63,250 nt of DNA, filler included, from Stramenopiles sp. TOSAG23-6 (GCA_900128565.1; 11 parts of 11 records of this genome joined end to end with filler, not necessarily neighbours in it); one strand, 5' to 3'. Shown: positions 5,880-24,810, numbered from the whole stretch's first letter. Program-made: numbers and translations. The notes: generated from the sequence alone by a model not told the origin.

Positions 5880-5972
5880 AAATAATGTGAAAAAATATGT
5901 TCCCATTCAAAATTTGTTACATTCAAGATTTTGAAAGGTTTTGAAAGGAAAACATGGAAATTGAAAAAATAT

Positions 5973-6135
5973 ATACATTTGAACAATACATTTGAACAAT
6001 ATATTTGAACAATACATTTGAACAATATATTTGAACAATAGATTTGAACAATACATTTGAACAATATATTTGAACAATACATTTGAACAATACATTTGAA
6101 CAATACATTTGAACAATACATTTGAACAATACATT
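5973..6135. repeat. 13-bp minisatellite (TTTGAACAATACA) inside the intron upstream of the DENND6-like exon
   Basis: About 12 tandem units with C/T/G variants, running into the contig end. Confidence 0.9.
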
Positions 6136-6235: not shown

Positions 6236-6241
6236 TTTACC

Positions 6242-6272
<31 letters not shown>

Positions 6273-6346
6273 CGTAAAAAAATTTCATACCTAACAAATT
6301 TGTACCAAAAAAAAAAAAAAATGAAAAATATTTTTGTACTCTTCAG

Positions 6347-7977: not shown

Positions 7978-8008
<31 letters not shown>

Positions 8009-8623
8009 AATTTTTTTTTTTTTTTTTTTTTTTTTTTGTACGAAATTTCATACCTAACAAATTTTTGTATTAAAAAACATATTTTTCACAGTACATGTCA
8101 TGCGTTTACGTAAACATCAAAGAAAACAAGATAAAATGAAACACGAATTAACCGAAATTGCTATAAAATTTCGTAGATTATTAGTGAAAAAAGAAAAATG
8201 TAAATTTTTTATACGATCAAAAATCAAACACGCAAAACATCAATTTGTTCGTTTTCATTCAAAATTTCAAGTTTTTTTTTTTTGTTTAAGTACAAAATGT
8301 CGTACCAAAATTCAAGTGTTCAATCATTTCATTTTTTTTCCCTACACATTAAAAAAAAAAAAAGACAGATCTATTTATAGTTTAAATTTTTCATACAAAA
8401 TTTCATACCTAACAATTTTCTTACATTTTTTAAATATTTATATACGAGATATGCAGCTTTAACGTACCTACAAGACCGTGTACAACATGCAAATTGTCAA
8501 TTTGATGCGATAGAATACTTATTGAAACGAGTCCAACATGAAAAAGATTGTGTACAAAATAAGAAGTATTTAAATATTCGTGGTTTACATGTATGTTTTT
8601 ATTTTCATATTTTTATTTTCATA

Positions 8624-8658
<35 letters not shown>

Positions 8659-9065
8659 TTTCATTCATCTAAAAAAAAACATACTTGACATATTTTTTCA
8701 AAATACATTCAAAACGTCAATATTTTGCATTATATAAATTGCATAAAATAGCAAATAAAAATATACACAAGTGGTATAGGGAATATTTATATGAAATGTT
8801 TGGTGAAAATTCAAGAAGTTTGAACGTATGTTGATTTTTTATCAATGTGTTTTTGAAAAAAAAATTAAAATTTTTTTTTCGTACGAAATTTTGTACCTAA
8901 CAATTTTTTTTAATTTTTTAAAAATATGTTTGACAAAAAATGATAAAGAATTTAAAAGAGAACGTGAATTTTTATATACAATGAGAGATGAGTATGAAAG
9001 ACGTACACATGATATAACTCGACGGTTTCCTATGCCTGTAAAGCCACCAAATATCATTGAAATTT
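6347..9065 (+). CDS. Unknown multi-exon K/N/E-rich protein with repeated R-V-Q-H-type helical segments (partial at both ends)
   Basis: Exons ~6347-6541, 6674-7608, ~7754-7943, 8097-8246, ~8448-8590, 8709-8825, 8930-9065, mostly joined in frame by removal of family A elements; 8247-8447 is unresolved. Confidence 0.6.
6542..6673 (+). mobile_element. Family A non-canonical intron (GT...TT), 132 nt
   Basis: act ttt|GTATGTTTT...GTACCTAAC...AACAGTAT-TT|gat tca; TT duplicated; using the CAG at 6666-6668 gives a frameshift and stop. Confidence 0.7.
7609..7753 (+). mobile_element. Family A-like intron with internal N gap; 3' end ambiguous (could be TAG)
   Basis: GTACGTTTTT start; ...TTTACACTATAG end restores frame (L-KIKNECMEF), as would an end 3 nt earlier. 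Confidence 0.5.
7944..8096 (+). mobile_element. Family A non-canonical intron (GT...AT)
   Basis: gaa gct|GTTTGTTTTCATC...GTACGAAATTTCATACCTAAC...CACAGTAC-AT|gtc atg cgt; the CAG alternative is out of frame. Confidence 0.75.
8247..8447 (+). mobile_element. One or two family A elements, possibly flanking a micro-exon
   Basis: GTTCGTTTTC start, two core-like motifs and an ATAC-GA end; single removal does not restore frame and the mirror copy differs here. Confidence 0.45.
8591..8708 (+). mobile_element. Family A non-canonical intron (GT...AT)
   Basis: tta cat|GTATGTTTTT...CAAAATAC-AT|tca aaa cgt opens a 39-codon exon; AT duplicated. Confidence 0.75.
8826..8929 (+). mobile_element. Family A non-canonical intron (GT...GT)
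   Basis: ttg aac|GTATGTTG...GTACGAAATTTTGTACCTAAC...AAAATAT-GT|ttg aca aaa is in frame. Confidence 0.7.
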
Positions 9066-9207
9066 GTATGTTTTTTTTGAAATTTTTTTTGAAATTTTTT
9101 TTGAAATTTTTTTTTGAAATTTTTTTTGAAATTTTTTTTTTTTATTATCGAAAAAAAAAAAAAAAATTCATACCTAACAAATTTTTACAAAAAAAAAAAA
9201 ATTTTTT
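9066..9207 (+). mobile_element. Family A element truncated at the fold-back centre, with internal (T)nGAAA tandem expansion
   Basis: GTATGTTTT start, CATACCTAAC core, then the sequence inverts. Confidence 0.65.
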
Positions 9208-9349
9208 AAAAAATTTTTTTTTTTTTGTAAAAATTTGTTAGGTATGAATTTTTTTTTTTTTTTTCGATAATAAAAAAAAAAAATTTCAAAAAAAATTTCA
9301 AAAAAAAATTTCAAAAAAAATTTCAAAAAAAATTTCAAAAAAAACATAC

Positions 9350-9756
9350 AAATTTCAATGATATTTGGTGGCTTTACAGGCATAGGAAACCGTCGAGTTA
9401 TATCATGTGTACGTCTTTCATACTCATCTCTCATTGTATATAAAAATTCACGTTCTCTTTTAAATTCTTTATCATTTTTTGTCAAACATATTTTTAAAAA
9501 ATTAAAAAAAATTGTTAGGTACAAAATTTCGTACGAAAAAAAAATTTTAATTTTTTTTTCAAAAACACATTGATAAAAAATCAACATACGTTCAAACTTC
9601 TTGAATTTTCACCAAACATTTCATATAAATATTCCCTATACCACTTGTGTATATTTTTATTTGCTATTTTATGCAATTTATATAATGCAAAATATTGACG
9701 TTTTGAATGTATTTTGAAAAAATATGTCAAGTATGTTTTTTTTTAGATGAATGAAA

Positions 9757-9791
<35 letters not shown>

Positions 9792-10025
9792 TATGAAAAT
9801 AAAAATATGAAAATAAAAACATACATGTAAACCACGAATATTTAAATACTTCTTATTTTGTACACAATCTTTTTCATGTTGGACTCGTTTCAATAAGTAT
9901 TCTATCGCATCAAATTGACAATTTGCATGTTGTACACGGTCTTGTAGGTACGTTAAAGCTGCATATCTCGTATATAAATATTTAAAAAATGTAAGAAAAT
10001 TGTTAGGTATGAAATTTTGTATGAA

Positions 10026-10073
<48 letters not shown>

Positions 10074-12252
10074 GGTGGGGAAAAAAAACTATAAATAGAT
10101 CTGTCTTTTTTTTTTTTTAATGTGTAGGGAAAAAAAATGAAATGATTGAACACTTGAATTTTGGTACGACATTTTGTACTTAAACAAAAAAAAAAAACTT
10201 GAAATTTTGAATGAAAACGAACAAATTGATGTTTTGCGTGTTTGATTTTTGATCGTATAAAAAATTTACATTTTTCTTTTTTCACTAATAATCTACGAAA
10301 TTTTATAGCAATTTCGGTTAATTCGTGTTTCATTTTATCTTGTTTTCTTTGATGTTTACGTAAACGCATGACATGTACTGTGAAAAATATGTTTTTTAAT
10401 ACAAAAATTTGTTAGGTATGAAATTTCGTACAAAAAAAAAAAAAAAAAAAAAAAAAAATTTAAATTTNNNNNNNNNNNNNNNNNNNNNNNNNNNNNNNNN
10501 NNNNNNNNNNNNNNNNNNNNNNNNNNNNNNNNNNNNNNNNNNNNNNNNNNNNNNNNAAAAAAAAAAAAAAAAAAAAAAAAATTAAAATTTTAAATATTTC
10601 ATGATGAAAACAAACAGCTTCAGCTTTTGCCATTTTTATGAAATAATCAATTTGTGTACGTCCATCTTTTTGTAAAAGCAGTTTTGTACCTAAACGTAAT
10701 CGTTCATGTTGAACACGTTTTCGTAAATATACTAATGGCAAATGCCTTGATAATGCATGTTTTGCTCTTTTTTTCAAGAATTCCATACATTCATTTTTTA
10801 TCTTTCTATAGTGTAAANNNNNNNNNNNNNNNNNNNNNNNNNNNNNNNNNNNNNNNNNNNNNNNNNNNNNNNNNNNNNNNNNNNNNNNNNNNNNNNNNNN
10901 NNNNNNNNNNNNNNNNNNNNNNNNNNNNNNNNNNNNNNNNNNNNNNAAAAAAAAAAAAAAAAAAAAAAAATGATGAAAATAAAAACGTACAAATGCATCC
11001 GTTGAAAAGCACTTAACGTTTTTTTCGCTGATTTTACTCGTTTACTAACACTTCTTAATTTTGATAATGATTTTTTTGATTTTTTAATTTTTTTTTGATT
11101 TTGTATTTTTTGTATTTTTTGTTTTTTTTGTATTTTTTGTTGTTCTCCTTCAATTTGTAATTTCGTTGATGGTTCTGATTTCGTGTTTTCTGATATATTT
11201 TGTTTATTTTGATGATTCAAAGTGATTGAATCATCATCATCATTTTGTTCAAACCCTAACCCTAATGAAGATACATCTGTACCTAAAGAACCTAAAGACT
11301 CTAAAGAATGTTGTGTTGCTTCTCTTGCTGAAGCATTTGTCCATACAATATCAAGTTCTGTTGTGACATTTTTAATTTCTGTTGTGTCATTAGGGGTAGG
11401 GTTTTCATCATCAAGAATTTTTTGTTCAATTTTTTGTTCAATTAATTTTTCAATTGTTTTAGGTCGGATTTTTGTTGATGGATCAAATGGTATCAAATCC
11501 ACTTTTGTTTCATCTTTATGTGTAACATTTTGTTTCATTGAATTTTTATTTTTTTTATGTTGTTTATNTTTTTTATTTTTTTTATTTCTTTTATTTTTTT
11601 CAAGTTTATTTTTGATTTTTTGTTTTGCCTTGATTATTCCTGAAATCATTGTTTTGTGTTGATTTTGTGTTTGTATACCGATTGAATCATCAATATGTTC
11701 ATTCTCTTCACTACTACTAGAAGATGTTTCCGTAGTAAAATCTGTACTTAATTCTGAAAAAGAGGAAGAAAAAATATCATTTTTTTCAATTTCATCATTT
11801 TTTTCACTTTCATTATTTTTTTCAATTTCATCATTATTTAATTCTATTTTGGTATCAACATTTTCTTTTGTTGTATGTTTGTCCATTGTTTTATGTGTCC
11901 ATTGTCTGACGTCACTCACTGAATCAAATACTGTTGAAAAATATTGAATTTGTTTTTTGTTTTTTTGGTTAGGTACAAAATTAACTACGAAAAATATTTC
12001 ACATTTTTTTTTTTGAAAAAATTTAAAAATTTTTGAAAAAAAAAAAAAAAAACATACAAAAGTATCAAAACTATTTTGATTTTGATTTTGATCCATTTGA
12101 TCAATTTGATTGTCATTATTATTATCTGAATGATTTGGAGTAACATTTGTAGGTGATATGTTTTTTTGTATTTTAGGAATTTTAGGTATATTCACTTGAA
12201 ATTGAGAACCAGCTTTACAATCATTAGGTAATGTTACTTGAAATAAACGACC
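9350..12252 (-). CDS. Mirror copy of the unknown K/N/E-rich gene
   Basis: Reverse complement of 6347-9065 apart from gap sizes and a local indel. Confidence 0.5.
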
Positions 12253-12326
12253 CTGAAGAGTACAAAAATATTTTTCATTTTTTTTTTTTTTTGGTACAAA
12301 TTTGTTAGGTATGAAATTTTTTTACG

Positions 12327-12357
<31 letters not shown>

Positions 12358-12463
12358 GGTAAANNNNNNNNNNNNNNNNNNNNNNNNNNNNNNNNNNNNN
12401 NNNNNNNTTAATTAATTAANNNNNNNNNNNNNNNNNNNNNNNNNNNNNNNNNNNNNNNNNNNN

Positions 12464-14088
12464 ACATGTATTGTAAAAAAAATTAAATTCGAAATTTGTT
12501 AGGTACAAAATTTTCAAAAAAAAAAAAATAAATTTGAAATTCATAATGAAAACGTACACAATCCAGCAGCTTCAACTCTTTTCCCAGCGGCAATTAGAAC
12601 ATCCGCATTATTCCCACAAAATTGAATCACTAGAGGTCGATCCTTTTGATGAAATGCAAAAGAATTTCTATGTATAGTGAAAAAATATTTAAAAAAAAAA
12701 AAAAAAAAAATCGTTAGGTACGAAATTTCGTACGAAAAAAAATTACATTTGAAATTGTGAAAACGTACATATACTTCTGAAACATTATACCCAGCGGCAT
12801 CTATCATTTGTGTTGAACATACACTACAATTATTCTCCCGTGCAAGCATTCTAAATGCTAAATCACTTTGACCTACCATTGGCGCACACCAAAATTTATG
12901 TTTTCGGGACAAAATTTCATGTACAAAATTAGATGTACAAGATTTCGTGCGAGGTTGAGACATATATCTTGGATACATTTTCATTATTTTACTTGAAGTA
13001 TTTTCTATATTGTTTTTACTATACACGAAATCTTCTGGATCTTTTTTTATATGTTGAACTATTTCATCACTACCTCCACCACCACCGAGTAATCTTGAAG
13101 ACAATGACATTTTATTGGATGTATTCGTTGAGTGGATTGGATCAGATTCGTGAAATTGTTTTTCTTGAGTTGATGCATCAGATTCGTGAAATTGTTTCTT
13201 TTGTTTCTCTTGTTTCTCTTTTTGTGATTTCAAATTGACACAATCAGTAAAATCGACATCAGCAAATGTGATAGACTTCGACGCATCAGGGTTTGCTTTC
13301 AACCATGCATCTACATGTAGAGCAGATTCATATAATTCCATCACCATTTTAGGTAAGAGTTTTCGAACAGCAAAATTCACTGCAAATGCTGGAATACTTC
13401 CTCCAGGATCTTCAAAAATTTTTATAACAAATTTACATGAAGTAGGTGTCAACGGTTCAATCATTTGAGTAGCATAAGATTGTGTAACACGTACAACACC
13501 AGTGAAAAATCCATATCGCAAAGGGCGAAGTTTTGCGTCTTCAGGATGTGGCCGAGAAAGACAAGTATAAATTTTTCTACATTTTCCATCTTTTGCCTCT
13601 TTTGCCTCTTTCGGTATAATAACGGAACCAAGACGTCGATAAAACACATAATCTCTATTAGACATTGGCATTGGGTATGCACTTTCCAAATATAGTACTT
13701 GACAACCTTTCTCCGACGTGATATGAGAAACTTCTTTACAATTAGAATCCCAATTTAGTCTGTACGAGTCATTATATGTTGCCTGAACCAAGGCTCTCGC
13801 AGACACAGGTAGCACACCAATAAAAATATACTCAAAAAGTGAAGACGGTGGTTTTCTCCGACGATATGCATTTACATGAATGCCATCTTTTTCTGGATAT
13901 GTAAAAAAGGCACTCCACTTTGGTGAAGAAGCGTCATCTTTGCTACTATTGTTGCTGGTGAGGGATTCTGGGGGTAGTGCTGGTTCATCTTTACATATTT
14001 CCTTGAGGATTTTAAGGGTTTCCGGAAGTAACTCTTCCTTCAAAATAGGACCAGATCCTCTTGGAGGCATTGTGCGATGGACACTCAT
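12464..14088 (-). CDS. START domain + tRNA-dihydrouridine synthase (DUS1-like) fusion, 3'-partial (mirror copy)
   Basis: Identical to 16963-18587; family A introns at 12670-12768 and 12466-12557. Confidence 0.75.
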
Positions 14089-14386
14089 TCTGAAATATTT
14101 GGAAATGTTGCCCCCACCTTTTTGATCTAATCAGTTCAGTGTATACTTTTGGAGTAATGACGGGAAAGACGATCCTAGTCGAAGGTAGTGTCGTCCGTTT
14201 AATTTGGTACGAAATTTTGGTACGAAATTTTGACAATGTTGATTGTTGGCCGTTGTTTAGTAAATACTATATAACATTGTGTCGCCAAGCTAGATTATTA
14301 TTCGGCTATTATTCCGTTGTTTAGAAAGTGAATACGCCTGTCTTTGTAAGACATTTGAAGAGTTCTCATTTTATTACATTCGATCT
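14089..14386. promoter_or_regulatory. Short divergent intergenic region between START-DUS and ATG7, containing a tandem GGTACGAAATTTT motif
   Basis: Head-to-head ORFs about 300 bp apart; motif occurs twice at ~14206-14231. Confidence 0.45.
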
Positions 14387-15429
14387 ATGTTAAAATATCA
14401 GTGTTTTTCATCTCATGTTGACGCTTCATTCTGGAAAGAGTTGGCTCGGCGAAAGCTTGATGAGTACTGTCTGAGTGACGCAGCTGTCGATATTGTCGGT
14501 TCATATGATGTTTCCCGTCACGGTGGGAAAATTGGTGCTCGAATGAGTGTTAGTGCTGACGCATTCCAGGTAGAAATTGACACGTATGCTAATAGTGGTG
14601 TTCGGTGTCGTGGTGTGCTCAGAAACTTTAACACTGTGGAAGAATTTAAAGCAGCCAATCGAACTAAAATGCTTAATGATCTTGGAATGGAAGTGTTATC
14701 AGATATTATTTCAGGTAAAGCGATAGAAGATCCGAGTAGGCTTAACCCTTTTCTCCTTGTTACCTTTGCAGATCTAAAGAAACATGTTTTTGTCTATTGG
14801 TTTGCGTTTCCTGCTCTAGTCCCTTCAAATAATGCTAACTTTTGTGGTTCAATTGAAACAACTTCTGAATATTTTTCCGATCCAGAAAAACAACTACCTT
14901 CCGTAGCCGAGATAGTATGTAAACTTGGAGGTGGATCCCGACCGGCTCCAGCATTTGTCATGCGTCGAAATAGTGAAACTGGTGAAATTGATATTTTTGA
15001 TCTGTCTATATTATTAGATGAAAATCCAGAAGATTTGAAAGCAAACTTTGTAATTGGCATTTTAGATCCAAGTTCATTACCAGAGAATCCTGGGTGGCCT
15101 ATCCGTAATATTTTGTTAATGATCGCCTTACGAATGAAGTTAAACACATTTCGTATTTTATGTTATAGAGATTATCCATGTCACTCTTTTACAAATTCGT
15201 CAATGAAAAGTGTATTTTTTACAGTGGATCTCAAGGGAATGTTGACGTCGGAGGTAATGTCGACATCTCTAACTCTTCCAAATTCGATTATTTCAAAAGT
15301 TTTAGGTTGGGAATGTAATAAAAAAGGCAAAATGGGTCCAAGACATGTCAATTTATCAAAACTCATGGACTCTCGTATGTTAGCTGATTCTGCAGTAGAT
15401 TTAAATTTGAAATTGATGAGATGGAGAAT
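14387..15429 (+). CDS. ATG7: Autophagy E1-like enzyme ATG7, N-terminal exon (3'-partial)
   Basis: FSSHVDASFWKELARRKLD, GVLRNFNTVEEFK, FLLVTFADLKKHVFVYWFAFPAL, NPGWPIRN, GWE, LADSAVDLNLKLMRWR motifs. Confidence 0.95.
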
Positions 15430-15525
15430 GTTCGTTTTCAAAATTGAATTTTGATTTTTTTTTTTTTTTTTTTTTTTTTCAAAACGTTTTTTAGGCTAAC
15501 TTTTTTTTTTTTTGAAAATTTTTTT
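15430..15525 (+). mobile_element. Family A-like intron start (GTTCGTTTTC...GCTAAC) truncated at the fold-back centre
   Basis: Begins where ATG7 similarity stops (aga at|GTTCG). Confidence 0.6.
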
Positions 15526-15621
15526 AAAAAAATTTTCAAAAAAAAAAAAAGTTAGCCTAAAAAACGTTTTGAAAAAAAAAAAAAAAAAAAAAAAAATCAA
15601 AATTCAATTTTGAAAACGAAC

Positions 15622-16664
15622 ATTCTCCATCTCATCAATTTCAAATTTAAATCTACTGCAGAATCAGCTAACATACGAGAGTCCATGAGTTTTGATAAAT
15701 TGACATGTCTTGGACCCATTTTGCCTTTTTTATTACATTCCCAACCTAAAACTTTTGAAATAATCGAATTTGGAAGAGTTAGAGATGTCGACATTACCTC
15801 CGACGTCAACATTCCCTTGAGATCCACTGTAAAAAATACACTTTTCATTGACGAATTTGTAAAAGAGTGACATGGATAATCTCTATAACATAAAATACGA
15901 AATGTGTTTAACTTCATTCGTAAGGCGATCATTAACAAAATATTACGGATAGGCCACCCAGGATTCTCTGGTAATGAACTTGGATCTAAAATGCCAATTA
16001 CAAAGTTTGCTTTCAAATCTTCTGGATTTTCATCTAATAATATAGACAGATCAAAAATATCAATTTCACCAGTTTCACTATTTCGACGCATGACAAATGC
16101 TGGAGCCGGTCGGGATCCACCTCCAAGTTTACATACTATCTCGGCTACGGAAGGTAGTTGTTTTTCTGGATCGGAAAAATATTCAGAAGTTGTTTCAATT
16201 GAACCACAAAAGTTAGCATTATTTGAAGGGACTAGAGCAGGAAACGCAAACCAATAGACAAAAACATGTTTCTTTAGATCTGCAAAGGTAACAAGGAGAA
16301 AAGGGTTAAGCCTACTCGGATCTTCTATCGCTTTACCTGAAATAATATCTGATAACACTTCCATTCCAAGATCATTAAGCATTTTAGTTCGATTGGCTGC
16401 TTTAAATTCTTCCACAGTGTTAAAGTTTCTGAGCACACCACGACACCGAACACCACTATTAGCATACGTGTCAATTTCTACCTGGAATGCGTCAGCACTA
16501 ACACTCATTCGAGCACCAATTTTCCCACCGTGACGGGAAACATCATATGAACCGACAATATCGACAGCTGCGTCACTCAGACAGTACTCATCAAGCTTTC
16601 GCCGAGCCAACTCTTTCCAGAATGAAGCGTCAACATGAGATGAAAAACACTGATATTTTAACAT
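15622..16664 (-). CDS. ATG7: ATG7 N-terminal exon (mirror copy)
   Basis: Reverse complement of 14387-15429. Confidence 0.85.
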
Positions 16665-16962
16665 AGATCGAATGTAATAAAATGAGAACTCTTCAAATGT
16701 CTTACAAAGACAGGCGTATTCACTTTCTAAACAACGGAATAATAGCCGAATAATAATCTAGCTTGGCGACACAATGTTATATAGTATTTACTAAACAACG
16801 GCCAACAATCAACATTGTCAAAATTTCGTACCAAAATTTCGTACCAAATTAAACGGACGACACTACCTTCGACTAGGATCGTCTTTCCCGTCATTACTCC
16901 AAAAGTATACACTGAACTGATTAGATCAAAAAGGTGGGGGCAACATTTCCAAATATTTCAGA

Positions 16963-18587
16963 ATGAGTGTCCATCGCACAATGCCTCCAAGAGGATCTGG
17001 TCCTATTTTGAAGGAAGAGTTACTTCCGGAAACCCTTAAAATCCTCAAGGAAATATGTAAAGATGAACCAGCACTACCCCCAGAATCCCTCACCAGCAAC
17101 AATAGTAGCAAAGATGACGCTTCTTCACCAAAGTGGAGTGCCTTTTTTACATATCCAGAAAAAGATGGCATTCATGTAAATGCATATCGTCGGAGAAAAC
17201 CACCGTCTTCACTTTTTGAGTATATTTTTATTGGTGTGCTACCTGTGTCTGCGAGAGCCTTGGTTCAGGCAACATATAATGACTCGTACAGACTAAATTG
17301 GGATTCTAATTGTAAAGAAGTTTCTCATATCACGTCGGAGAAAGGTTGTCAAGTACTATATTTGGAAAGTGCATACCCAATGCCAATGTCTAATAGAGAT
17401 TATGTGTTTTATCGACGTCTTGGTTCCGTTATTATACCGAAAGAGGCAAAAGAGGCAAAAGATGGAAAATGTAGAAAAATTTATACTTGTCTTTCTCGGC
17501 CACATCCTGAAGACGCAAAACTTCGCCCTTTGCGATATGGATTTTTCACTGGTGTTGTACGTGTTACACAATCTTATGCTACTCAAATGATTGAACCGTT
17601 GACACCTACTTCATGTAAATTTGTTATAAAAATTTTTGAAGATCCTGGAGGAAGTATTCCAGCATTTGCAGTGAATTTTGCTGTTCGAAAACTCTTACCT
17701 AAAATGGTGATGGAATTATATGAATCTGCTCTACATGTAGATGCATGGTTGAAAGCAAACCCTGATGCGTCGAAGTCTATCACATTTGCTGATGTCGATT
17801 TTACTGATTGTGTCAATTTGAAATCACAAAAAGAGAAACAAGAGAAACAAAAGAAACAATTTCACGAATCTGATGCATCAACTCAAGAAAAACAATTTCA
17901 CGAATCTGATCCAATCCACTCAACGAATACATCCAATAAAATGTCATTGTCTTCAAGATTACTCGGTGGTGGTGGAGGTAGTGATGAAATAGTTCAACAT
18001 ATAAAAAAAGATCCAGAAGATTTCGTGTATAGTAAAAACAATATAGAAAATACTTCAAGTAAAATAATGAAAATGTATCCAAGATATATGTCTCAACCTC
18101 GCACGAAATCTTGTACATCTAATTTTGTACATGAAATTTTGTCCCGAAAACATAAATTTTGGTGTGCGCCAATGGTAGGTCAAAGTGATTTAGCATTTAG
18201 AATGCTTGCACGGGAGAATAATTGTAGTGTATGTTCAACACAAATGATAGATGCCGCTGGGTATAATGTTTCAGAAGTATATGTACGTTTTCACAATTTC
18301 AAATGTAATTTTTTTTCGTACGAAATTTCGTACCTAACGATTTTTTTTTTTTTTTTTTTTAAATATTTTTTCACTATACATAGAAATTCTTTTGCATTTC
18401 ATCAAAAGGATCGACCTCTAGTGATTCAATTTTGTGGGAATAATGCGGATGTTCTAATTGCCGCTGGGAAAAGAGTTGAAGCTGCTGGATTGTGTACGTT
18501 TTCATTATGAATTTCAAATTTATTTTTTTTTTTTTGAAAATTTTGTACCTAACAAATTTCGAATTTAATTTTTTTTACAATACATGT
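16963..18587 (+). CDS. START (PCTP/STARD7-like) domain fused to tRNA-dihydrouridine synthase (DUS1-like), 3'-partial
   Basis: START: YRLNWD, YPMPMSNRDYVFYRR, EDPGGSIPAFAVN. DUS: CAPMVGQSDLAFRMLAR, DRPLVIQFCGN. Exons 16963-18282, 18382-18493, 18586-. Confidence 0.85.
18283..18381 (+). mobile_element. Family A non-canonical intron (GT...AT), 99 nt
   Basis: gta tat|GTACGTTTTC...GTACGAAATTTCGTACCTAAC...CACTATAC-AT|aga aat gives SEVY-RNSF; the TAG 2 nt further would frameshift DRPLVIQF. Confidence 0.85.
18494..18585 (+). mobile_element. Family A non-canonical intron (GT...AT), 92 nt
   Basis: ttg t|GTACGTTTTC...TACAATAC-AT|gt yields a Cys codon; no AG in the element. Confidence 0.75.
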
Positions 18588-18687
18588 NNNNNNNNNNNNN
18601 NNNNNNNNNNNNNNNNNNNNNNNNNNNNNNNTTAATTAATTAANNNNNNNNNNNNNNNNNNNNNNNNNNNNNNNNNNNNNNNNNNNN

Positions 18688-20877
18688 CACCTGCATTTAG
18701 ATTTGTTAATGTACTTGTTTTTATCGCATCTAGATCAAGTGATACATTTTCGTTTTCTTCAATTTCTTCCTGAATATTTTCATCTTCAGGAATTTCATTT
18801 ACTATTATAGGCTCACGCCAGTGACAACCAGGTTCCGCAAGACATCCACTTTGTCCGATTTTGGTTAAGTTCTCGCAACTATTTCGGTCTTTACAAGATA
18901 GCTCAGTTTCATTCCAAGCACATCCTTCGAGAGATTCACAAATCATTTTATGCATAGCTGGGATCTCTGAAATAGCTTTATTCCATTGTGATACAATTTT
19001 CACACGATTTGAGCAGATCGCTGTGCAATTATCTATATTGATTTCACATAAAGGTCCTGAATAATCATCATTACACATGCATTTAAATGACGCTTTTTTG
19101 TCGATACACTTTCCGCCGTGTTGACAAGGATTTGAGAGACACTCATGTATTGAATAAAAATAATATCAAATTCGAAATTCGTTAGGTACAAAATTTTGTA
19201 TGAAAAAAAAATTCATGATGAAAACATACATCTATATTATGTTCACAAAATTGTCCATCAAATCCATTCCTACATTCACAAGTGTACTCTGCAATACCAT
19301 CCACACACTTGGCCTTATTTTTACATTCATGTTCTAAACATTCATCGATTTCTGTACCACACAAAAGTCCTTTCCATATATATTGTGAAAAATATTTTTT
19401 TTTGTAAAATTCATTAGGTACAAAATTTCGTATGAAAAAAAAAATAATAATTTGAAAATCCTTATGAAAATCCTTATGAAAACATATCCTTTTGAACATT
19501 CACATTTAAAATTTTCCTTTGGCAAGTCTATGCATTTGCTATTATTTTTACACGGAGCGCTCACACAATCATCAATATCGATTTCACAAAATTCACCTGT
19601 AAATCCTTTCGTGCACTCACATGAATATTTTGCAACTTCATCGATACATTTTGATCCATTTTCACATTTATTGTTTCCACAGTCTTGTATTGTGAAAAAA
19701 TATTAAAAAAAAAAATGTTAGGTACAAAATTTCTTATGAAAAAAAATGAAATTTATCATGAAAACGTATATCAAGATCATGGTCACATAGTATACCGGAA
19801 AACCCAGTTTTGCATTCACAGTGAAATCTACCTCCCATTAAATTCTCACAAGAAGCTCCATTGTTGCAAGGTGAGCTTTCGCATTCATCAATATCGACAT
19901 CGCAAGTTTCACCAGTCCAACCTCTAGAACATGGATATTGTAAAAAATATTTTTTTTTGATTTAAAAAACATCGTTAGATATAAAATTTTCTATGAAAAA
20001 AAAATTTGAAATTTATGATGAAAACATATGTACACCTAAATCCTATAGGTAAGTCTGTACAAATACTATTATTTTGACAAGGTTTGGATTCGCAGTCATA
20101 GATATTGTGAAAAAATATTTTTTTTTGTAAAATTCATTAGGTACCAAATTTCGTATGAAAAAAATAAATTCAAATTAATGATGAAAACGTATCTTTAATA
20201 TCGTTTTCGCAAAAGATACCTCTTGTACCAGGATGACATTTACAATAGTAATCTCCATTTTTCTTGGCAATACATATTCCTTCATTTTTGCACGGAGATG
20301 AAGAACATGGACCCATAGCTTTTGCACAGTTTTTGCCTTCCCAACCAGGAGTACAACGACACATATAGTCTTTATTTTCATTTTTACACACGCCTTGCTT
20401 ACACGGATTTGGTGTACAAAGGTCTATATTTTCCTGTTTTGGAGGTTTCCTTTTTTCTATTTGTGTTTTCAATTCGGTTTCTGTGCAGTTTTCACCAGTA
20501 AATCCACTGATGCAGTCACACTTATACAAGCTACCTTGTTTTGTACATCTACCCCCATTCTTACAAGGTGACGTTGCACATGGATCTATTATTTTATCCA
20601 AGCGCGGATCTTCCCAAGAGGTATTTCCAGTTTTACTGTTGTAATAGTATGTATTTCCAGTACTATCATCTATATGCGTTGTCCAGGTATCTTCTTCAAC
20701 TATTTTAGTTGTTTTCATTGACGCCGGTTTTTCCCATGTTGTTTCTTTTGTTTCCGTATTGTAATAATACTTGCGGCCTGAGCCTGTATCTGTGAATTCT
20801 TGCCAATCAGAAGTAATTAAACTCAAATTATTACTAAATGCAATGAGTAAGAACACAAATGTTGTATCAAATCTCAT
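18688..20877 (-). CDS. Signal peptide + 2 WW domains + about 9 EGF/Ca-EGF repeats (3'-partial, 6 exons)
   Basis: MRFDTTFVFLLIAFS; WQEFTDTGSGRKYYYNTETKETTWEKP; WTTHIDDSTGNTYYYNSKTGNTSWEDP; exons 20877-20193, 20099-20030, 19932-19770, 19684-19488, 19377-19230, 19144-18688 give continuous 6-Cys repeats. Confidence 0.9.
19145..19229 (-). mobile_element. Family A non-canonical intron (GT...AT), 85 nt
   Basis: ata gat|GTATGTTTTC...TTCAATAC-AT|gag tgt gives CEHNID-ECLSNPC; AT duplicated. Confidence 0.85.
19378..19487 (-). mobile_element. Family A non-canonical intron (AT...AT), 110 nt
   Basis: aaa gg|ATATGTTTTC...CACAATAT-AT|a tgg gives CSK-G-WKGLLC, keeping the conserved EGF Gly. Confidence 0.85.
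19685..19769 (-). mobile_element. Family A non-canonical intron (AT...AA), 85 nt
   Basis: ctt gat|ATACGTTTTC...CACAATAC-AA|gac tgt gives CDHDLD-DC. Confidence 0.8.
19933..20029 (-). mobile_element. Family A non-canonical intron (AT...CC), 97 nt
   Basis: tgt ac|ATATGTTTTC...TACAATAT-CC|a tgt gives FRC-T-CSRGWTG; boundary can slide a few nt. Confidence 0.8.
20100..20192 (-). mobile_element. Family A non-canonical intron (AT...CT), 93 nt
   Basis: aaa g|ATACGTTTTC...CACAATAT-CT|at gac tgc gives CENDIK-D-DC; an end 3 nt later is also in frame. Confidence 0.7.
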
Positions 20878-21137
20878 GGGAATCGCATGTATCCAAAGAC
20901 TATTTGTATCTATTAATAGTACGTGTTACGTGTTTTGCGTAGCCTACATTTGAATTTCATGGAATCGGAATCATCATATTCCATTCGGCCGGAGATTTTA
21001 AAATTAATAGAACCGAAAACAAAACGAAAACGCTTCGTCCTCTTCTTTTTGAAGAACATGCGATACCTACTAGACCGTGTCATCAAGAATGATTAAGGGA
21101 TTATGATTTTATGCTTAGTCGTTGGTAGTGACGAAAA

Positions 21138-21541
21138 TGGAAGCTAAGGACGACAAGCCCAGGAATAGTTTTGATGGCAGTAATTCTGGATTTACCAACT
21201 CTCGCTCAATCGGCCGCGTGAGTCCAAACCGTTTATTTAAACACAACATTAAAAGTGCTTTACAAGAATCAGCGCCATTTATTCGTTCTTCCGAGATCAT
21301 TTTCTCCAATGAATGTGACAATGAAGCAGAAATCCACATAAAATGTTTATCTGAAGGTGATGATTTAATCATTATCGCAAACTGGGTTGGAAAATCTCTT
21401 GGTTTTCGCTTATTGCGGAGTTTGCGACCATGTTTCAAAGTGACTCACTGCGATGACCTTCACTCTTTATTGATGCAATGCCCTTGCTATTCAGATGCTT
21501 TCAATTCTTCGCTTGCAAATAAATTAGCTACATTAACATAA
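21138..21541 (+). CDS. Hypothetical protein (~134 aa)
   Basis: Open frame with ATG, divergent from the EGF gene, higher GC than its flanks; no recognisable domain. Confidence 0.4.
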
Positions 21542-21824
21542 AACACGTCAATTTGTCATACAAAGAAAACGTGAAAAATAAGGGAATTAGGTTTAACGTA
21601 ACTCTCTAATCCAAAAACAATTGTTAGGTCAAAATGGATTGCCTTCAATTCGCAGGATATTACTGAGTTATTCGCGAAAGTAATAAAAATGGTTTATTTT
21701 TTGACTTTTATTTTTTATTACAATTTATGCGTTGTGCTTACAATTTATGCGTTGTGCGAGAAAATAGTAGATTTGTCTATACAGAGGTATTGAAACCACA
21801 GACTTAAACAACAAACAGTGATAA

Positions 21825-23456
21825 TTAAATAATTTTAATATTTTCTGGCTTTACAGAAATAGAAGCTGCACCATTGCACGGTCGTACACCAAGCCTTCCA
21901 TTTTTCATTATCGTTTTTGTAACCACACCTTCAGTGCCATTCAAAGACTCTCCCTTCTCCGAAGTAAGATTAAAAAATCGAACTTTATCTCCTATCGCAA
22001 ATTTATGGATTGTAATATTTTCTGGCTTTACAGAAATAGAAGCTGCACTATTGCACGGTCGTACACCAAGCCTTCCATTTTTCATTATCGTTTTTGTAAC
22101 CACACCTTCAGTGCCATTCAAAGACTCTCCCTTCTCCGAAGTAAGATTAAAAAATCGAACTTTATCTCCTATCGCAAATTTATGGATTGTGGGGACATCT
22201 ACTGCTGCTAACTTCTTAACATCTGATAAATTCTCAACTTCTGCTGCCGCCGCCGCCGCCGCTGCTGTTCCTGCTCCCGCTGCTGCGGTCGCTGCTCCTG
22301 CCGCTGCTCCTGCTCCTGCCACTGCTGCCGCCGCTGCCGCTGCTGTTTTCCTCGCGTCAGCTGTCTCCGAATGGATGCCACCTCGTCGTAAATGAGGTAG
22401 AAGTCTCTCTCTAGCATCAAAATCCTTCATCGTCTTCTGAAGTTGTTCATCCATGTTTCCCGCAATTAAATCGATCAAGTCGTCAGCTAAGTGATTTGCT
22501 TGGACGGTGCCATTGGAAATCATGTCCTGACATACCCGAGATAAGTACAATTTTAGTCTTGCTGTATATGTATTCCAAACACTTCCAGGAATCACAGTTA
22601 GTTGTTGCTGCGTTCTATCACGCCTAAAAAACAAATCATTTCTATTGATACGTTTTTCAGACATAAAAGAGATTGGTCTGTGATCACCGTCGCCATAAGC
22701 AGGAAAAGTTTCGGTCTTGTCATGAAGGTCAGCACAATGAGGTTTAATAATCCATCCGTCTGGTCGAATTACAATTTCAGTGAAAAGGAAACCCATAAAA
22801 ACCCCATGTACAGTCTCAAAGTCATCAATAACACTATCGGCACGCAAATCATTTTTCGACCTATGATAATACATCACCTCTGCTCCACTTTGGTGTCTAA
22901 ACACAGGCGCACCATTTTGATATTTGTCTTGTATATTGTATCTGCCAGATTCAATACTTTTTCTTAAAGAATATACGTATACGTCTTCATCGAATAAGTC
23001 CTGATTTTTATGCTCTTCATATTCATCTCTGTCCCGTGTTACTCTAGGCGGAAAGCTGAAAGAATAATTAATATAATTATTTGGATCAAGCCTCTCTGCG
23101 GCTCTATTCCATTGCCCAGTTGGGGAACTTGTAGTTATTTCATACCAGTGTTTATTAGTTTGACCCAATATCCACCGGTCGTCTAAACCCCCACGCCAAA
23201 TGAATATTTTACCCTCTTTGCTTTCTTTTGAAAAGATAATTTCACGTGCGTTTTCTGATTCTGATGGATCCTGTGTGTAGATTCCGTTAGCGTTTTTATA
23301 ACCAGCACCATACACATAGAGGTGTTCTGGAATTTCAGGTTCAGGTTCAAGTTCAGTTGCTCCATTTACAGTTCTATTTCTACAATTAAAAATAAGCGTC
23401 ACGAGCAACAGCTTAAGGAAGGTGGCCAACAGAAACACTTTAATAAAAGTTATCAT
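21825..23456 (-). CDS. Intronless 543-aa protein: hydrophobic N-terminus, poly-Ala linker, two near-identical 59-aa SH3/KOW-like C-terminal repeats
   Basis: Long ORF; repeat IHKFAIGDKVRFFNLTSEKGESLNGTEGVV...SVKPENI twice. Confidence 0.75.
   Translation of the reverse strand: MITFIKVFLLATFLKLLLVTLIFNCRNRTVNGATELEPEPEIPEHLYVYGAGYKNANGIYTQDPSESENAREIIFSKESKEGKIFIWRGGLDDRWILGQTNKHWYEITTSSPTGQWNRAAERLDPNNYINYSFSFPPRVTRDRDEYEEHKNQDLFDEDVYVYSLRKSIESGRYNIQDKYQNGAPVFRHQSGAEVMYYHRSKNDLRADSVIDDFETVHGVFMGFLFTEIVIRPDGWIIKPHCADLHDKTETFPAYGDGDHRPISFMSEKRINRNDLFFRRDRTQQQLTVIPGSVWNTYTARLKLYLSRVCQDMISNGTVQANHLADDLIDLIAGNMDEQLQKTMKDFDARERLLPHLRRGGIHSETADARKTAAAAAAAVAGAGAAAGAATAAAGAGTAAAAAAAAEVENLSDVKKLAAVDVPTIHKFAIGDKVRFFNLTSEKGESLNGTEGVVTKTIMKNGRLGVRPCNSAASISVKPENITIHKFAIGDKVRFFNLTSEKGESLNGTEGVVTKTIMKNGRLGVRPCNGAASISVKPENIKII
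21837..22189. repeat. 177-bp tandem duplication within CDS
   Basis: Two copies offset by 177 nt with one visible substitution (Ser/Gly). Confidence 0.9.
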
Positions 23457-23700
23457 TATTCTTATTATTTGTATATTGGGGCCTTAGTAAATAAGTATAG
23501 ATAGACTTTGCTTGTTCTTCCTTGAATTTAATCTAAATCGGTATGGACGCACAAAACACTGACTTGATCCGTGTCCTTTACCGCGGTTTTTTTCGTGTGT
23601 TTTGCTGGCAGGTCGAGGTTGAGGTCAATATATCGCGATTTGATTTGATGACGTCGTACAAATTGTACAATGATACCACCGAATACATATTAGACTAAAA

Positions 23701-24810
23701 ATGGGCAAATTTGATGAAATTCCCTTACATTTGCGTTTTTTATTCGGGGCAAGTGCAAATTGCACTGCTACGGCTGTGACACATCCTATGGATGTTTTAA
23801 AAGTTCGCTTGCAGCTCGACGGGCAAGTTGCTGCAAAAAAAACACGTCTAGTTCATTGTGCTCAGTCAGTTTTCCAATTAGAGGGTACCAGAGGTTTCTT
23901 TAGGGGTCTTTCTCCTGCATTTCTTCGACAAATTTTTTATGGTGGGACTCGGCTCACTGTATATGATATTGCGTTAGATTACGCTAGTGACCATGATGGA
24001 ACACCGCCTCCACTATATATAAAGGCCCCAATAGCTCTCACCGCAGATATTTTATACTTATTACAAAACAAAAAATAATAATTCATCAATTTCTATTGTA
24101 GCGTTATAATTTATTAATTTGTATTACAATTGACACATTGAACACTTTATATGTGCGATTGGTGCCATGGTTGGCAATCCCTTTGATTTATCATTAGTTC
24201 GAATGGCAGCAGATGGTAGTAAACCAGTAGCAGAGCGCCGTATGTATAAACATGGCTTTGATGCAGTGTATGTTTTATATGAATTTCTAATTGAATTTTT
24301 TTTCATACGAAATTTCGTACCTAACGATTTTTTTTTTGAAATATTTTTTCACAATACGTGTATCGAATCAGCAAAGAAGAAGGTTTTCTCTCACTTTGGC
24401 GGGGTTGTGGTCCAACATATTTCATACATATTACAAACAAACAAATAATAATATCAAGTTGTATCATATCTTTTATAATTTATTAATTTGTATCATAATT
24501 GACACATTGAACACTTTAAATGGTAGGTCGTTGTATGGTATTGAATGTTGGTCAGCTTTCAACGTATACTGAAGCTAAACAACAGCTTAAAGCGTATCTG
24601 GGATTTCGCGAGGGAATTACATTACATTTTGTTTCATCTATGATTTCTGGTTTTGTTGCCACGTCCATGGCTTTGCCATTTGATACTGCTAAAACTAGAA
24701 TGTATGTTTTATTTTTTTTCAAATTCTATTTTTTTTTCGTACGAACTTTTGTACATAACGATATTTTTTTGAAATATTTTTCCAAAATACATACAGCAAC
24801 TACCTTCCGG
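23701..24810 (+). CDS. Mitochondrial carrier (SLC25), 2-oxoglutarate/malate or dicarboxylate-tricarboxylate type, 3'-partial, 5 exons
   Basis: Three PxDxxKxR signatures (PMDVLKVR, PFDLSLVR, PFDTAKTR); exons 23701-24046, 24153-24267, 24360-24416, 24522-24701, 24793-. Confidence 0.92.
24047..24152 (+). mobile_element. Family B non-canonical intron (AT...AT), 106 nt
   Basis: gca g|ATATTTTATAC...TTGACACATTGAACACTTTATAT|gt gcg gives ALTA-G-AIGAMVGNP. Confidence 0.85.
24268..24359 (+). mobile_element. Family A non-canonical intron (GT...GT), 92 nt
   Basis: gca gt|GTATGTTTT...CACAATAC-GT|g tat cga gives FDA-V-YRISKEEG; GTGTAT repeated across both junctions; no AG in the element. Confidence 0.88.
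24417..24521 (+). mobile_element. Family B non-canonical intron (AT...AT), 105 nt
   Basis: cca ac|ATATTTCATAC...TTGACACATTGAACACTTTAAAT|g gta gives GCGP-T-VGRCM. Confidence 0.85.
24702..24792 (+). mobile_element. Family A non-canonical intron (GT...AT), 91 nt
   Basis: aga at|GTATGTTTT...CCAAAATAC-AT|a cag caa gives DTAKTR-I-QQ; AT duplicated. Confidence 0.8.

Follow-up and report, generated by a model that had tools for sequence, protein, structure and literature searches.

Nearly all eukaryotes end their introns in AG, only a handful of lineages escape this rule, and why AG is used remains an open question. The stretch of DNA analyzed here (63,250 nt, hereafter the window) bears on it, for a first-pass annotation had described in it an AT-rich element that interrupts unrelated genes and whose removal appeared to restore their reading frames without any AG at the 3' end. 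We asked whether these elements behave as introns, what might define their 3' ends and how they came to carry such variable termini.

Contigs and the element family

The window is made up of 11 contigs joined with N-TTAATTAATTAA-N linkers, of which five are distinct:

1-6135: contig A, contained six more times at 24911-62142
6236-12363: contig B, an inverted duplicate of itself
12464-18587: contig C, an inverted duplicate of itself
18688-24810: contig D
62243-63250: contig E

Given the repeated contigs and mirror arms, unique sequence amounts to about 19 kb, and element copies in the duplicated parts are not to be counted twice. The mirror-image contigs look to us like chimeras of single-cell amplification. 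The first-pass annotation had listed 16 elements, all of which were recovered with the positions and termini given here:

5-116, plus strand: element copy, GT-AT; upstream exon cut by contig start
906-998, plus strand: element copy, GT-AT; flanked on either side by a long open frame of contig A; 2-nt direct repeat at/AT
6542-6673, plus strand: element copy, GT-TT; AG 5 nt before end bypassed; direct repeat tt/TT
7944-8096, plus strand: element copy, GT-AT; CACAG 5 nt before end bypassed
8591-8708, plus strand: divergent copy without CCTAAC box, GT-AT
8826-8929, plus strand: element copy, GT-GT
18283-18381, plus strand: element copy in START-Dus gene, GT-AT; 99 nt, read-through open; AG 2 nt beyond shifts frame
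18494-18585, plus strand: element copy in START-Dus gene, GT-AT; downstream exon lost at contig end
19145-19229, minus strand: element copy in WW/EGF gene, GT-AT; at ...HNID/EC... junction
19378-19487, minus strand: element copy inside EGF domain (CECSKG/WKG), AT-AT; no in-frame GT/GC-AG alternative
19685-19769, minus strand: element copy in WW/EGF gene, AT-AA; at ...DLD/DC... junction
19933-20029, minus strand: element copy in WW/EGF gene, AT-CC; within invariant C-x-C of EGF domain
20100-20192, minus strand: element copy in WW/EGF gene, AT-CT; between EGF domains
24268-24359, plus strand: element copy in mitochondrial carrier gene, GT-GT; 4-nt direct repeat GTGT at both junctions
24702-24792, plus strand: element copy in carrier gene, GT-AT; after ...DTAKTR
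62940-63010, minus strand: divergent copy without box, GT-GA; located between ankyrin repeats; direct repeat GAGT (4 nt)

The proposal that these elements form a single family was borne out by three conserved blocks common to the copies (a 5' RTAYGTTTT, an internal AAATTTYGTACCTAAC box and a 3' AAATATTTTTTCACAATAY followed by 2 nt) and by an alignment that runs end to end for 14 of them, the two outliers (8591-8708 and 62940-63010) having only the 5' and 3' blocks in common with the family. Identity between copies is 77% in the 5' block, 87% in the box, which is the best conserved, and 74% in the 3' block, compared to 38% from composition alone. The linkers between the blocks vary in length (22-88 nt and 8-24 nt), and the elements span 71-153 nt, contain U-runs and enclose a palindrome (GTACGAAATTTCGTAC) that is internal rather than terminal. 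With up to two mismatches allowed, the whole window contains 44 occurrences of the box TTYGTACCTAAC, where 10.9 are expected. The 16 copies and their relatives are spread over at least six genes and five contigs, so that many similar copies reside in unrelated genes.

The tabulated termini (GT-AT in eight copies, GT-GT in two, and GT-TT, GT-GA, AT-AT, AT-AA, AT-CC and AT-CT once each) agree with the first-pass tally and include no 3' AG in any of the 16 listed copies. The first base is G in 12 copies and A in four, with GTAYGT in 12 of 16. Ten of the 16 elements end in AT, as do both introns of a second family described below, and the last triplet is YAY (CAT or TAT) in 10; a YAY in the exon ahead of the 5' site is found in three of 16 only. 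The annotation had further claimed that several elements lack AG and that nearby AGs usually shift the frame. Indeed, 10 of 16 contain no AG anywhere, and use of the AG located 5 nt before the inferred end of 6542-6673 and 7944-8096 breaks the frame. The presence, inside many genes of an apparent marine microbial eukaryote, of a short AT-rich repeat whose ends are almost never AG is confirmed at the sequence level.

Terminal dinucleotides and flanking direct repeats

The last two nucleotides of the intron match the two nucleotides upstream of it in eight of 16 cases (permutation p 0.003), and the first two match the start of the following exon in seven of 16. Introns starting with A associate with 'at' exons (Fisher p 0.007). 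Across a 4-nt border window 39 of 64 positions match (p 0.003), with perfect 4-nt repeats in only two of 16 cases. This link between terminal dinucleotides and flanking exon bases is absent from the first-pass annotation. The repeats straddling the junctions look as if a target-site duplication of about 4 nt had been divided by the splice sites, the signal being modest. Because the terminal dinucleotides vary in step with the exon bases next to them, they point to a transposon origin, and we set this finding beside known introner systems below.

Terminal inverted repeats, a common feature of DNA transposons, extend to 4 nt at most (GTAT...ATAC), and the 19 kb of unique sequence yielded no autonomous element, no empty site and no copy lying between genes. 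Scans for the box returned no loci in public genome contigs, 35 loci in public viral contigs with just two weak partial matches, and at least 117 loci in public metagenome contigs, those listed being single 16-mer chance matches with no nhmmer match. A literature search for the motif yielded unrelated primer matches only.

All 16 copies lie in the sense orientation of their host gene (two-sided p 3e-5), an arrangement that bears on whether the elements might instead be removed from DNA, like the internal eliminated sequences of ciliates, with the contigs representing a germline-like copy. Such removal would accommodate short, AT-rich elements devoid of a 3' splice consensus and flanked by direct repeats of which one copy is left. 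However, a DNA process does not require sense orientation, TA is not found at the borders, the standard code leaves the frames open, and the elements conserve internal signals resembling those of spliceosomal introns. We consider DNA-level removal very unlikely.

Reading frames and host genes

The claim that excision from the R of the 5' block to 2 nt after ATAY restores the frame held in 12 of 12 scored cases, an outcome with a chance of 1.9e-6 at one third each, a figure not corrected for the annotation's selection of fitting cases. Scoring left out 5-116 and 18494-18585, which adjoin a contig end or Ns. The rule keeps the frame at each of the 11 elements flanked on both sides by long open frames, at 24268-24359 and 24702-24792 as judged by homology, and at 62940-63010 as judged by open frames together with ankyrin profile positions. 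The genes of contig B are not conserved, and the frames there are therefore judged on open reading frames alone. Two host genes on contig D were delineated:

18688-20880, minus strand: WW/EGF gene; N-terminal hydrophobic stretch, 2 WW and 9 EGF domains, five elements
23701-24810, plus strand: mitochondrial carrier gene; four introns (two per family); cut by contig end

Unspliced, the WW/EGF gene meets a stop at residue 235; without its five elements it encodes 573 residues with no stop and nine EGF domains. Canonical alternatives with in-frame GT/GC-AG borders do not exist for 19378-19487 and lead to loss of domains for 19933-20029 and 20100-20192, and for 19145-19229 and 19685-19769 the AG alternatives disrupt the D-x-D/N-E-C spacing found at other domain borders. 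Registers displaced 2 nt or 1 nt upstream at both ends were ruled out for two elements, as they forfeit the conserved Gly before Trp at 19378-19487 and replace D-L-D-D-C with D-L-E-D-C at 19685-19769.

In an alignment with 14 homologues, the predicted carrier product is gapless at all four junctions; a search with its exon 1 against longer proteins found nothing. The reported frame of the Dus gene was likewise upheld, its profile running through positions 2-39 before and 47-78 after 18283-18381, and so was that of the ankyrin gene, whose profile positions are contiguous across 62940-63010. A PDB search with the Dus region gave one weak match only, and a protein search with the 544-residue orphan found nothing. 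The identity of a further host gene as a member of the ATG7 family was confirmed by a protein atlas search, and in a single-gene tree this sequence falls outside the animal clade (95/95), on a long branch.

These host genes also speak to the possibility that the elements are unspliced miniature transposons in dead or dying genes, or artefacts of assembly or amplification. The contigs do contain amplification chimeras and duplicates, and one RNA-library contig retains the element. Against this, the flanking frames extend without a stop over as many as 1076 codons, nine junctions preserve both conserved residues and domain spacing, and five elements occupy one otherwise intact gene. Furthermore, an independent public assembly (P0121) contains a near-identical carrier exon 1 with the same second-family intron read through, and the copies have diverged from each other, which argues that they are not fresh insertions. 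Dead genes or artefacts thus appear highly improbable. The alternative that the elements behave as introns with non-AG 3' ends is supported by family membership, by the proteins that their predicted removal restores and by the lack of a usable AG.

Related introns and the position of the 3' splice site

The 16 listed elements are only those cases that fit the rule. In the follow-up, four further relatives were located, together with part of an ATG7 intron and two introns of a second family:

245-302, plus strand: candidate short intron ATATGTTTT...GGTATTT (AT-TT); rule keeps the frame
7609-7753, plus strand: related intron across an assembly gap; frames fit GT...CACTATAG (GT-AG), against the +2 rule
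8247-8446, plus strand: related intron GTTCGTTTTCA...CATACCTAAC...TATATACG; frames fit ATAC+1 (GT-CG)
62725-62789, minus strand: short relative with 3' end ...TTTTTCCAAAATACAT; 1-nt ambiguity at the borders (GG..AT or GT..TG)
15430-15525, plus strand: 5' part of ATG7 intron (GTTCGTTTTCAAAA...TTAGGCTAAC...); truncated at the palindrome centre of contig C
24047-24152, plus strand: second-family copy 1, ATATTTTATAC...CACTTTATAT (AT-AT); removal restores a Gly that all 14 homologues conserve
24417-24521, plus strand: second-family copy 2 in carrier gene, ATATTTCATAC...CACTTTAAAT (AT-AT)

The second family carries TTGAC 19 nt before its end. The proposal that CAATAY plus 2 nt sets the 3' splice site was sustained by the scored copies among the 16 listed and by 245-302, but not by 8247-8446 (+1) or 7609-7753 (GT-AG), 62725-62789 being ambiguous. 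As the rule fails in two of the four additional relatives, the distance to the 3' site would not be strictly fixed, and an AG, if there is one, may serve as that site.

RNA libraries and RNA folding

Three seawater metatranscriptome runs, taken as contigs and in small shares, were compared with 18688-24810, and coverage of the single-copy parts reached a depth of only 2-6. At that depth, none of the predicted exon-exon joints was found among the 15 of 22 joints listed, which link repeat copies. Summed over the RNA-library contigs that bear the element, depth reaches thousands (X1, X3), and the sole border-crossing contig (X3 record 18) runs unspliced across the 5' border of 19378-19487 from intron into exon; it could be pre-mRNA or DNA. 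Taken with each other, the depth and this intron-exon contig suggest that the element is probably transcribed. The libraries that bear it include one made from poly(A) RNA, with DNA carry-over possible; subject to the same caveat, its abundance in RNA and the exon-continuous contig also weigh against elimination at the DNA level.

The first-pass annotation had offered pairing of the element ends as another determinant of the 3' site. This found no support other than a 4-nt complementarity (GUAU/AUAC): a terminal helix forms in five of 15 minimum-energy folds, a consensus fold of 12 copies contained neither pairs nor covariation, and fold z-scores range from -2.5 to +0.9. The same results constrain a spliceosome-independent excision, in which two cuts, specified by the element ends and short direct repeats, would be followed by ligation of the exons, as proposed for euglenids and marine diplonemids. 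Nonconserved termini and short direct repeats at the junctions are compatible with such a process, as is the 2-nt 3' overhang that the GUAU...AUAC complement, where it forms, would leave at the inferred 3' site; single cells of uncultured marine diplonemids have been reported to contain introns of this kind (PMC12621601; PMC6221363), and the present contigs look like amplification chimeras. However, the elements have a 5' site of the GUAUGU type along with a branch-like box and U-tracts, features that nonconventional introns reportedly lack, they yield no consensus structure, and Hemistasiid noncanonical ends are C/G-rich (PMC12621601), whereas the elements are AT-rich. We regard spliceosome-independent excision as unlikely.

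The internal box and the type of spliceosome

In the 13 copies with a CTAAY match, the box lies 29-45 nt from the 3' end in 12 and 70 nt from it in 906-998. U12-type splicing relies on a strong branch box and tolerates A or G at +1 as well as non-AG 3' ends; its consensus is RTATCCTT(T) at the 5' site and TCCTTAAC at the branch site, 10-26 nt from the 3' end. Removal by a transformed minor (U12-like) spliceosome could hence be envisaged, because the first base is A or G, the ...CCTAAC box outranks the other blocks in conservation and resembles TCCTTAAC, RTAYGTTTT has RTAY and TTT in common with RTATCCTTT, and the second family combines AT-AT termini with TTGAC near its end. The ATCC core of the U12 5' site is nevertheless missing, U-rich tracts are present and the box lies beyond the expected distance from the 3' end. 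Moreover, A or G at +1 tracks the downstream exon, which suggests a target-site origin and not an intron subtype. An Rfam scan of 24.8 kb, with U11, U12, U4atac and U6atac among the RNAs of interest, returned no match. A U12-like machinery seems decidedly unlikely.

Proposed mechanism and significance

We favor, as somewhat the more probable account, that the elements are short, non-autonomous, transposon-derived ('introner'-like) introns of an AT-rich marine microbial eukaryote, with 3' sites that do not depend on AG. Each copy carries AYGTTTT at its 5' end, to which a GT or AT apparently contributed by the target site is joined to form RTAYGTTTT, a strong GUAUGU-type 5' splice site. The near-invariant UACCUAAC box, within the palindrome, is a likely branch site; the yeast branch-site consensus is UACUAAC, and the box is likened to that type. 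U-runs and a conserved 3' block, AAAUAUUUUUUCACAAUAY, complete the signals of each copy. Removal from pre-mRNA is predicted to start at the R of RTAYG and generally to end 2 nt beyond AUAY, and the first two and last two intron bases would be the halves of a target-site duplication of about 4 nt, cut mid-way by the splice sites. Splicing would then be the exact reversal of insertion, and because of this the terminal dinucleotides could vary (AT, GT, TT, GA, AA, CC, CT) with the frame kept. The 3' site would be positioned relative to the conserved 3' block without AG being read, and the most likely agent is a spliceosome whose recognition of 3' sites has been relaxed or re-targeted, for instance through a U2AF-like factor, as proposed for Fritillaria.

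A broader and more tentative possibility is that an undescribed marine protist lineage has a spliceosome that places the 3' site a fixed few bases past a U-tract/CACAAUAY block with AG unread, and that a transposon with a target-site duplication of about 4 nt, cut mid-way, has made its introns in bulk, splicing being the exact inverse of insertion. Such a lineage might represent a third independent AG-free origin, after larvaceans and Syndiniales, and would differ from these two in having kept textbook 5' and branch sites, which would single out the 3'-site step.

If a canonical-looking 5' site, branch box and U-tract are kept and AG is dropped, 3'-site choice would be separable from the rest of intron recognition, and such a system would supply natural sequence variants for studying that choice. 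It would also add a case of a mobile element that seems to supply the greater part of the signals for its own splicing, with splice sites inside the target-site duplication. Standard gene finders will mis-annotate genomes of this kind, as exemplified by the public protein P0121, a truncated read-through.

Comparison with known systems

Transposon-derived introns with non-GT/AG ends are documented in Fritillaria and Amoebophrya (PMC13326754, PMC11282704; PMC7789003), and the AG-free system described here looks like a variant beside these two, with different signals. In the larvaceans Fritillaria borealis and F. pellucida, GT-AG introns are the minority, the main classes being AG/AC and AG/AT, and removal is by a U2-type spliceosome with a diverged, duplicated U2AF (PMC13326754, PMC11282704); the window contains no U2AF gene. 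AT is the commonest 3' end in these species, at 34% and 44% (PMC13326754). At their ends the elements are closer to Fritillaria than the first-pass annotation had granted, AT being the commonest 3' end there (PMC13326754) as it is here. The two systems further resemble each other in their predominance of non-GT-AG introns, in the YAY that ends many of them, in the contribution, apparent here, of a target-site duplication to the splice site and in the retention of U-rich tracts. They differ in that the main Fritillaria classes start with AG, as do none of the 18 introns with fixed borders here, in the canonical-looking GTAYGT 5' site and very strong branch box of the present elements, in the rarity here of an exonic YAY before the 5' site, and in the host, an animal there and one that falls outside the animal clade here in the single-gene ATG7 tree, on a long branch.

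Amoebophrya, also a marine protist, likewise has repeated introns in unrelated genes, with no fixed terminal dinucleotides and a transposon-like spread (PMC7789003), and direct repeats overlap the exon/intron borders in both systems (3-5 nt there, PMC7789003; 2-4 nt here). In contrast, inverted repeats of 8-20 nt pair the intron ends in Amoebophrya (PMC7789003), whereas those of the present elements reach at most 4 nt with no conserved fold, and the 5' site and branch box here look canonical. The introners of Micromonas and Aureococcus (Huff et al. 2016, as described in PMC11282704) are also short non-autonomous elements that become introns on insertion, with the element supplying one splice site and the target-site duplication helping to form the other, and splicing takes out the element and one duplicate (PMC11282704). 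Their borders are GT/GC-AG (PMC11282704), whereas a 3' AG occurs here in none of the 16 listed copies and in one of the four further relatives.

The nonconventional introns of euglenids and diplonemids (PMC6221363, PMC12621601) share variable borders, short junction repeats, a suspected transposon origin and marine uncultured hosts studied from single cells. They are described as having no U1 complementarity, no polypyrimidine tract and stable pairing of their ends (PMC6221363, PMC12621601), and the present elements show the reverse on all three counts. Finally, ciliate internal eliminated sequences are TA-bounded, free in orientation and absent from transcripts, whereas the elements described here have borders other than TA, are sense in 16 of 16 copies and occur in RNA libraries.

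Composition of the window and its genes

Rather than a continuous chromosomal segment, the window consists of 11 contigs separated by linkers of Ns and TTAATTAATTAA. The distinct contigs are the following.

Distinct contigs of the window
1-6135: contig A
6236-12363: contig B
12464-18587: contig C
18688-24810: contig D
62243-63250: start of contig E

Six further identical 6122-nt copies of contig A sequence, contained in A (1-6135), occupy 24911-62142, which suggests that several assemblies were merged without dereplication. Contigs B and C are self-inverted duplicates, with their initial 200 nt reverse-complemented at the far end and every feature present twice, mirrored. Mirror-image contigs are the usual look of chimeras after whole-genome amplification of very little DNA, and B and C probably arose as such chimeras. 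Unique sequence in the window amounts to ~19 kb, and the G+C content across it is 21-41% per 2 kb. Its genes are eukaryotic, and include those listed below.

Genes identified
Adenylate-kinase-domain protein
START-domain protein continuing into dihydrouridine synthase (Dus)
ATG7
18688-20880, minus strand: protein carrying two WW and nine EGF domains behind a hydrophobic N-terminus
Mitochondrial carrier
Ankyrin-repeat protein

The START lipid-binding domain and the dihydrouridine synthase share one open frame (16921-18587), which makes an unusual fusion. No in-frame stop occurs in the 99-nt element at 18283, so gene-prediction software would translate it as part of the exon. WW domains, normally intracellular, follow a signal-peptide-like N-terminus in the 18688-20880 protein, ahead of the nine EGF domains. 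An alanine-rich run is present in a 552-aa open frame (21825-23483, minus strand), for which searches yielded neither a Pfam match nor a homologue; its C-terminus holds a tandem duplication of ~60 residues (DNA about 21840-22200).

To place the host we used ATG7: identity over its N-terminal domain is 51% with one EukProt protein and 33-40% with the remaining 119 matches listed, which include animals, fungi and an amoebozoan. The maximum-likelihood tree, a single-gene placement with a long branch, groups the window protein with that EukProt protein, and the pair falls outside the fungal clade, adjoining an MMETSP protist sequence. The pair also lies outside the animal clade (support 95/95); with a long branch and one gene, a fast-evolving animal host would be a remote possibility.

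A family of elements with three conserved blocks

All 16 copies of the short AT-rich intron-like element described in the first-pass annotation were recovered at their positions and with their reported termini, and 14 of them align over their whole length. Three blocks are conserved: a 5' block (counts among the 16 copies: G12 T16 A15 T11 G15 T16 T16 T15 T15), an internal box, AAATTTYGTACCTAAC, present in 14 of 16 copies with a mean pairwise identity of 87%, and a 3' block, ...AAATATTTTTTCACAATAY, followed by two variable bases. Averaged over pairs of copies, block identity is 74-87%, compared to 38% expected from composition, and the linkers between them span 22-88 nt and 8-24 nt. Matches to the box number 44 in the window (duplicates counted in), against 10.9 expected.

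A profile of 14 copies, used with nhmmer, re-finds those copies by construction and detected additional partial copies at 6259-6304, 8387-8423 and 62483-62512. The last, a box fragment (GTACAAAATTTTGTACCTAAC), lies just past the point where the open frame of the ankyrin gene stops; it is antisense to that gene and the sole copy not in sense orientation. The contig start at 6236-6345, without an upstream exon, holds the 3' part of a family member ending ...AAATATTTTTGTACTCTTCAG/GG (the slash marking a possible border), where a canonical-looking AG follows the usual 3' block.

Exact removal restores frames and domains

The first-pass annotation proposed that each element is cut from the R of RTAYG to 2 nt after ATAY. 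This rule joins the flanking frames in all 11 elements that lie between long open frames; 12 of 12 scored cases are in frame, with a chance probability of 1.9e-6 that is too favourable, since only fitting cases had been listed. Freed of its five elements, the EGF gene stays open for 573 residues, as far as the contig end, and encodes nine EGF domains with regular cysteine spacing, compared to a stop at residue 235 in the unspliced frame. Two of its junctions fall inside domains (C-T/C and G/W) and three at D-x-D/N-E/D-C borders. When two elements and the two introns of a second family are removed from the carrier gene, alignment with 14 homologues reveals no gap at the four junctions. Furthermore, Pfam profile positions 2-39 precede the element in the Dus gene and positions 47-78 follow it, and the repeats of the ankyrin gene abut across its element. 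Five lines of evidence say that the elements would have to be removed, at exactly the positions of the rule.

The 3' ends are predicted to be AG-independent

The absence of AG, ascribed to several elements by the first-pass annotation, extends to 10 of the 16; in two others an AG lies 5 nt ahead of the predicted end, and its use would break the frame. For the five EGF-gene introns we enumerated every frame-keeping GT/GC...AG pair near the borders. None was found near those of 19378-19487, and every alternative for 19933-20029 and 20100-20192 destroys an EGF domain. One alternative each for 19685-19769 and 19145-19229 retains nine domains; both spoil the five-residue D-x-D/N-E/D-C motif, which the protein shows at five of its six other domain borders, the sixth reading DIKDDC. 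In the Dus gene, where a nearby AG had been said to shift the frame, using the AG that lies 2 nt beyond the element would indeed move the frame out of the Dus match.

The second family comprises two carrier-gene introns.

Second-family introns
24047-24152: carrier gene
24417-24521: carrier gene

These are alike over their full length (88% mean column identity for the flanked stretches), and no further copy was found in the window. Their borders, set by homologue alignment, read ATATTTYATAC...CACTTTAWAT and are AT-AT, indicating that non-AG ends are not peculiar to one element. P0121, a protein from a public assembly, is 98% identical to carrier exon 1 and then runs ten residues into the family-2 intron; it provides an independent observation of this exon-intron structure. 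Counting both families, well-fixed borders are available for 18 introns, of which 12 end in AT and none in AG. At the sequence level, AG-independent 3' ends are well founded.

Four further introns of the same kind, absent from the original list, lie in non-conserved genes and are supported by open frames only.

Further introns
245-302: AT-TT, obeys the rule
62725-62789: obeys the rule only with one border moved by 1 nt
8247-8446: GT-CG, needs ATAC+1
7609-7753, across an assembly gap: normal GT...AG, ending CACTATAG, not +2

The proposed CAATAY+2 ruler is therefore a good description of the usual offset but an imperfect one, as two of these introns need other ends; the offset is usual, not fixed, and AG may be used where one is suitably placed, as the fit of 7609-7753 to GT...AG suggests.

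Intron borders and a possible target-site duplication

The variable end bases of the introns are not random. The last two intron bases equal the two exon bases directly upstream in 8 of 16 cases (permutation p = 0.003), non-AT ends included (tt/TT, gt/GT, ga/GA), and in 7 of 16 the opening dinucleotide of the intron recurs at the start of the next exon. An exon starting with "at" follows three of four AT-start introns, compared to none of 12 GT-start introns (Fisher p = 0.007). Pooled over four border positions, 39 of 64 match (p = 0.003), with no signal further out; the signal is modest, with perfect 4-nt repeats in 2 of 16, and no empty site was seen in the window.

The simplest reading of these matches is a target-site duplication of ~4 nt, N1N2N3N4, at the element borders. 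The 5' and 3' splice sites would then lie between N2 and N3 of the left and right duplicates, respectively, and splicing would restore the uninterrupted target. The GT or AT at the intron start would be target-derived, with the element proper beginning at AYGTTTT.

Probable removal at the RNA rather than the DNA level

Orientation is sense to the host gene in each of the 16 copies and in the further relatives (p = 3e-5), which neither DNA-level excision nor neutral insertion would require. The blocks also resemble spliceosome signals, with a GUAUGU-type 5' site, a UACCUAAC box similar to the yeast branch consensus UACUAAC, and U-runs.

Parts of contig D are present in three seawater metatranscriptomes, stored as contigs only, with single-copy pieces at a depth of 2-6. 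Over bins that mainly cover elements (19098-19507, 19713-19917, 24223-24427 and 24633-24810), the summed depth of the element is about 900-4200 in two runs, compared to 7-31 in the poly(A) run; the pair of bins on the final two EGF-gene copies (19918-20327) reach only 17-30 and nothing. X3 record 18, an RNA-library contig (167 nt, one mismatch), is unspliced and runs from intron into exon at 19487/19488. Together with the depths, it shows that the element is present in RNA libraries, where it may represent DNA carry-over. No predicted exon-exon joint was among the joints listed for these contigs at that single-copy depth. The RNA-library consensus of many copies differs from the local copies at 19412-19413, 24305 and 24746. 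Where a local copy has CCTAAT, most copies elsewhere have CCTAAC, to which the box seems to be held across the family.

RNAalifold on 12 copies returned no consensus pairs, and single-sequence folds showed no unusual stability (z -2.5 to +0.9). The sole end-to-end complement, GUAU/AUAC, forms in the minimum-energy structures of 5 out of 15 copies; its helix would put the 3' site two bases beyond it, and such end pairing may be a weak lead.

Comparison with known systems

On balance, we lean towards an introner-like transposon family with splice sites within its own target-site duplication, removed by an AG-independent spliceosome. Its significance would grow if the junctions were confirmed and the host belonged to a lineage where AG-free introns are unknown. 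We found no paper describing the element, which is weak evidence that it is unpublished.

The Fritillaria literature (PMC13326754, PMC11282704) states that fewer than 10% of F. borealis introns obey GT/AG, that AT is the commonest 3' end (34% in F. borealis, 44% in F. pellucida) and that the main classes end in a YAY triplet. Miniature transposons that duplicate a TAC target are their proposed source, and they are removed by a U2-type spliceosome with duplicated and diverged U2AF. In Amoebophrya, non-canonical introns occur in repeated copies, with direct repeats of 3-5 nt overlapping the borders and inverted repeats of 8-20 nt (PMC7789003). Nonconventional introns with paired ends and no U1 complementarity are reported from euglenids, hemistasiid diplonemids and uncultured marine diplonemid single cells (PMC12621601, PMC6221363), and canonical introners are widespread, especially in aquatic organisms (PMC11282704, PMC12130899).

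The window element shares with known systems a probable origin of the intron from a mobile element, borders that fall in a direct repeat and the lack of AG. In contrast with Fritillaria, none of its introns begins with AG; in contrast with Amoebophrya, the element is without long inverted repeats; and, unlike the euglenozoan type, it has a strong 5' site, a branch box and U-tracts.
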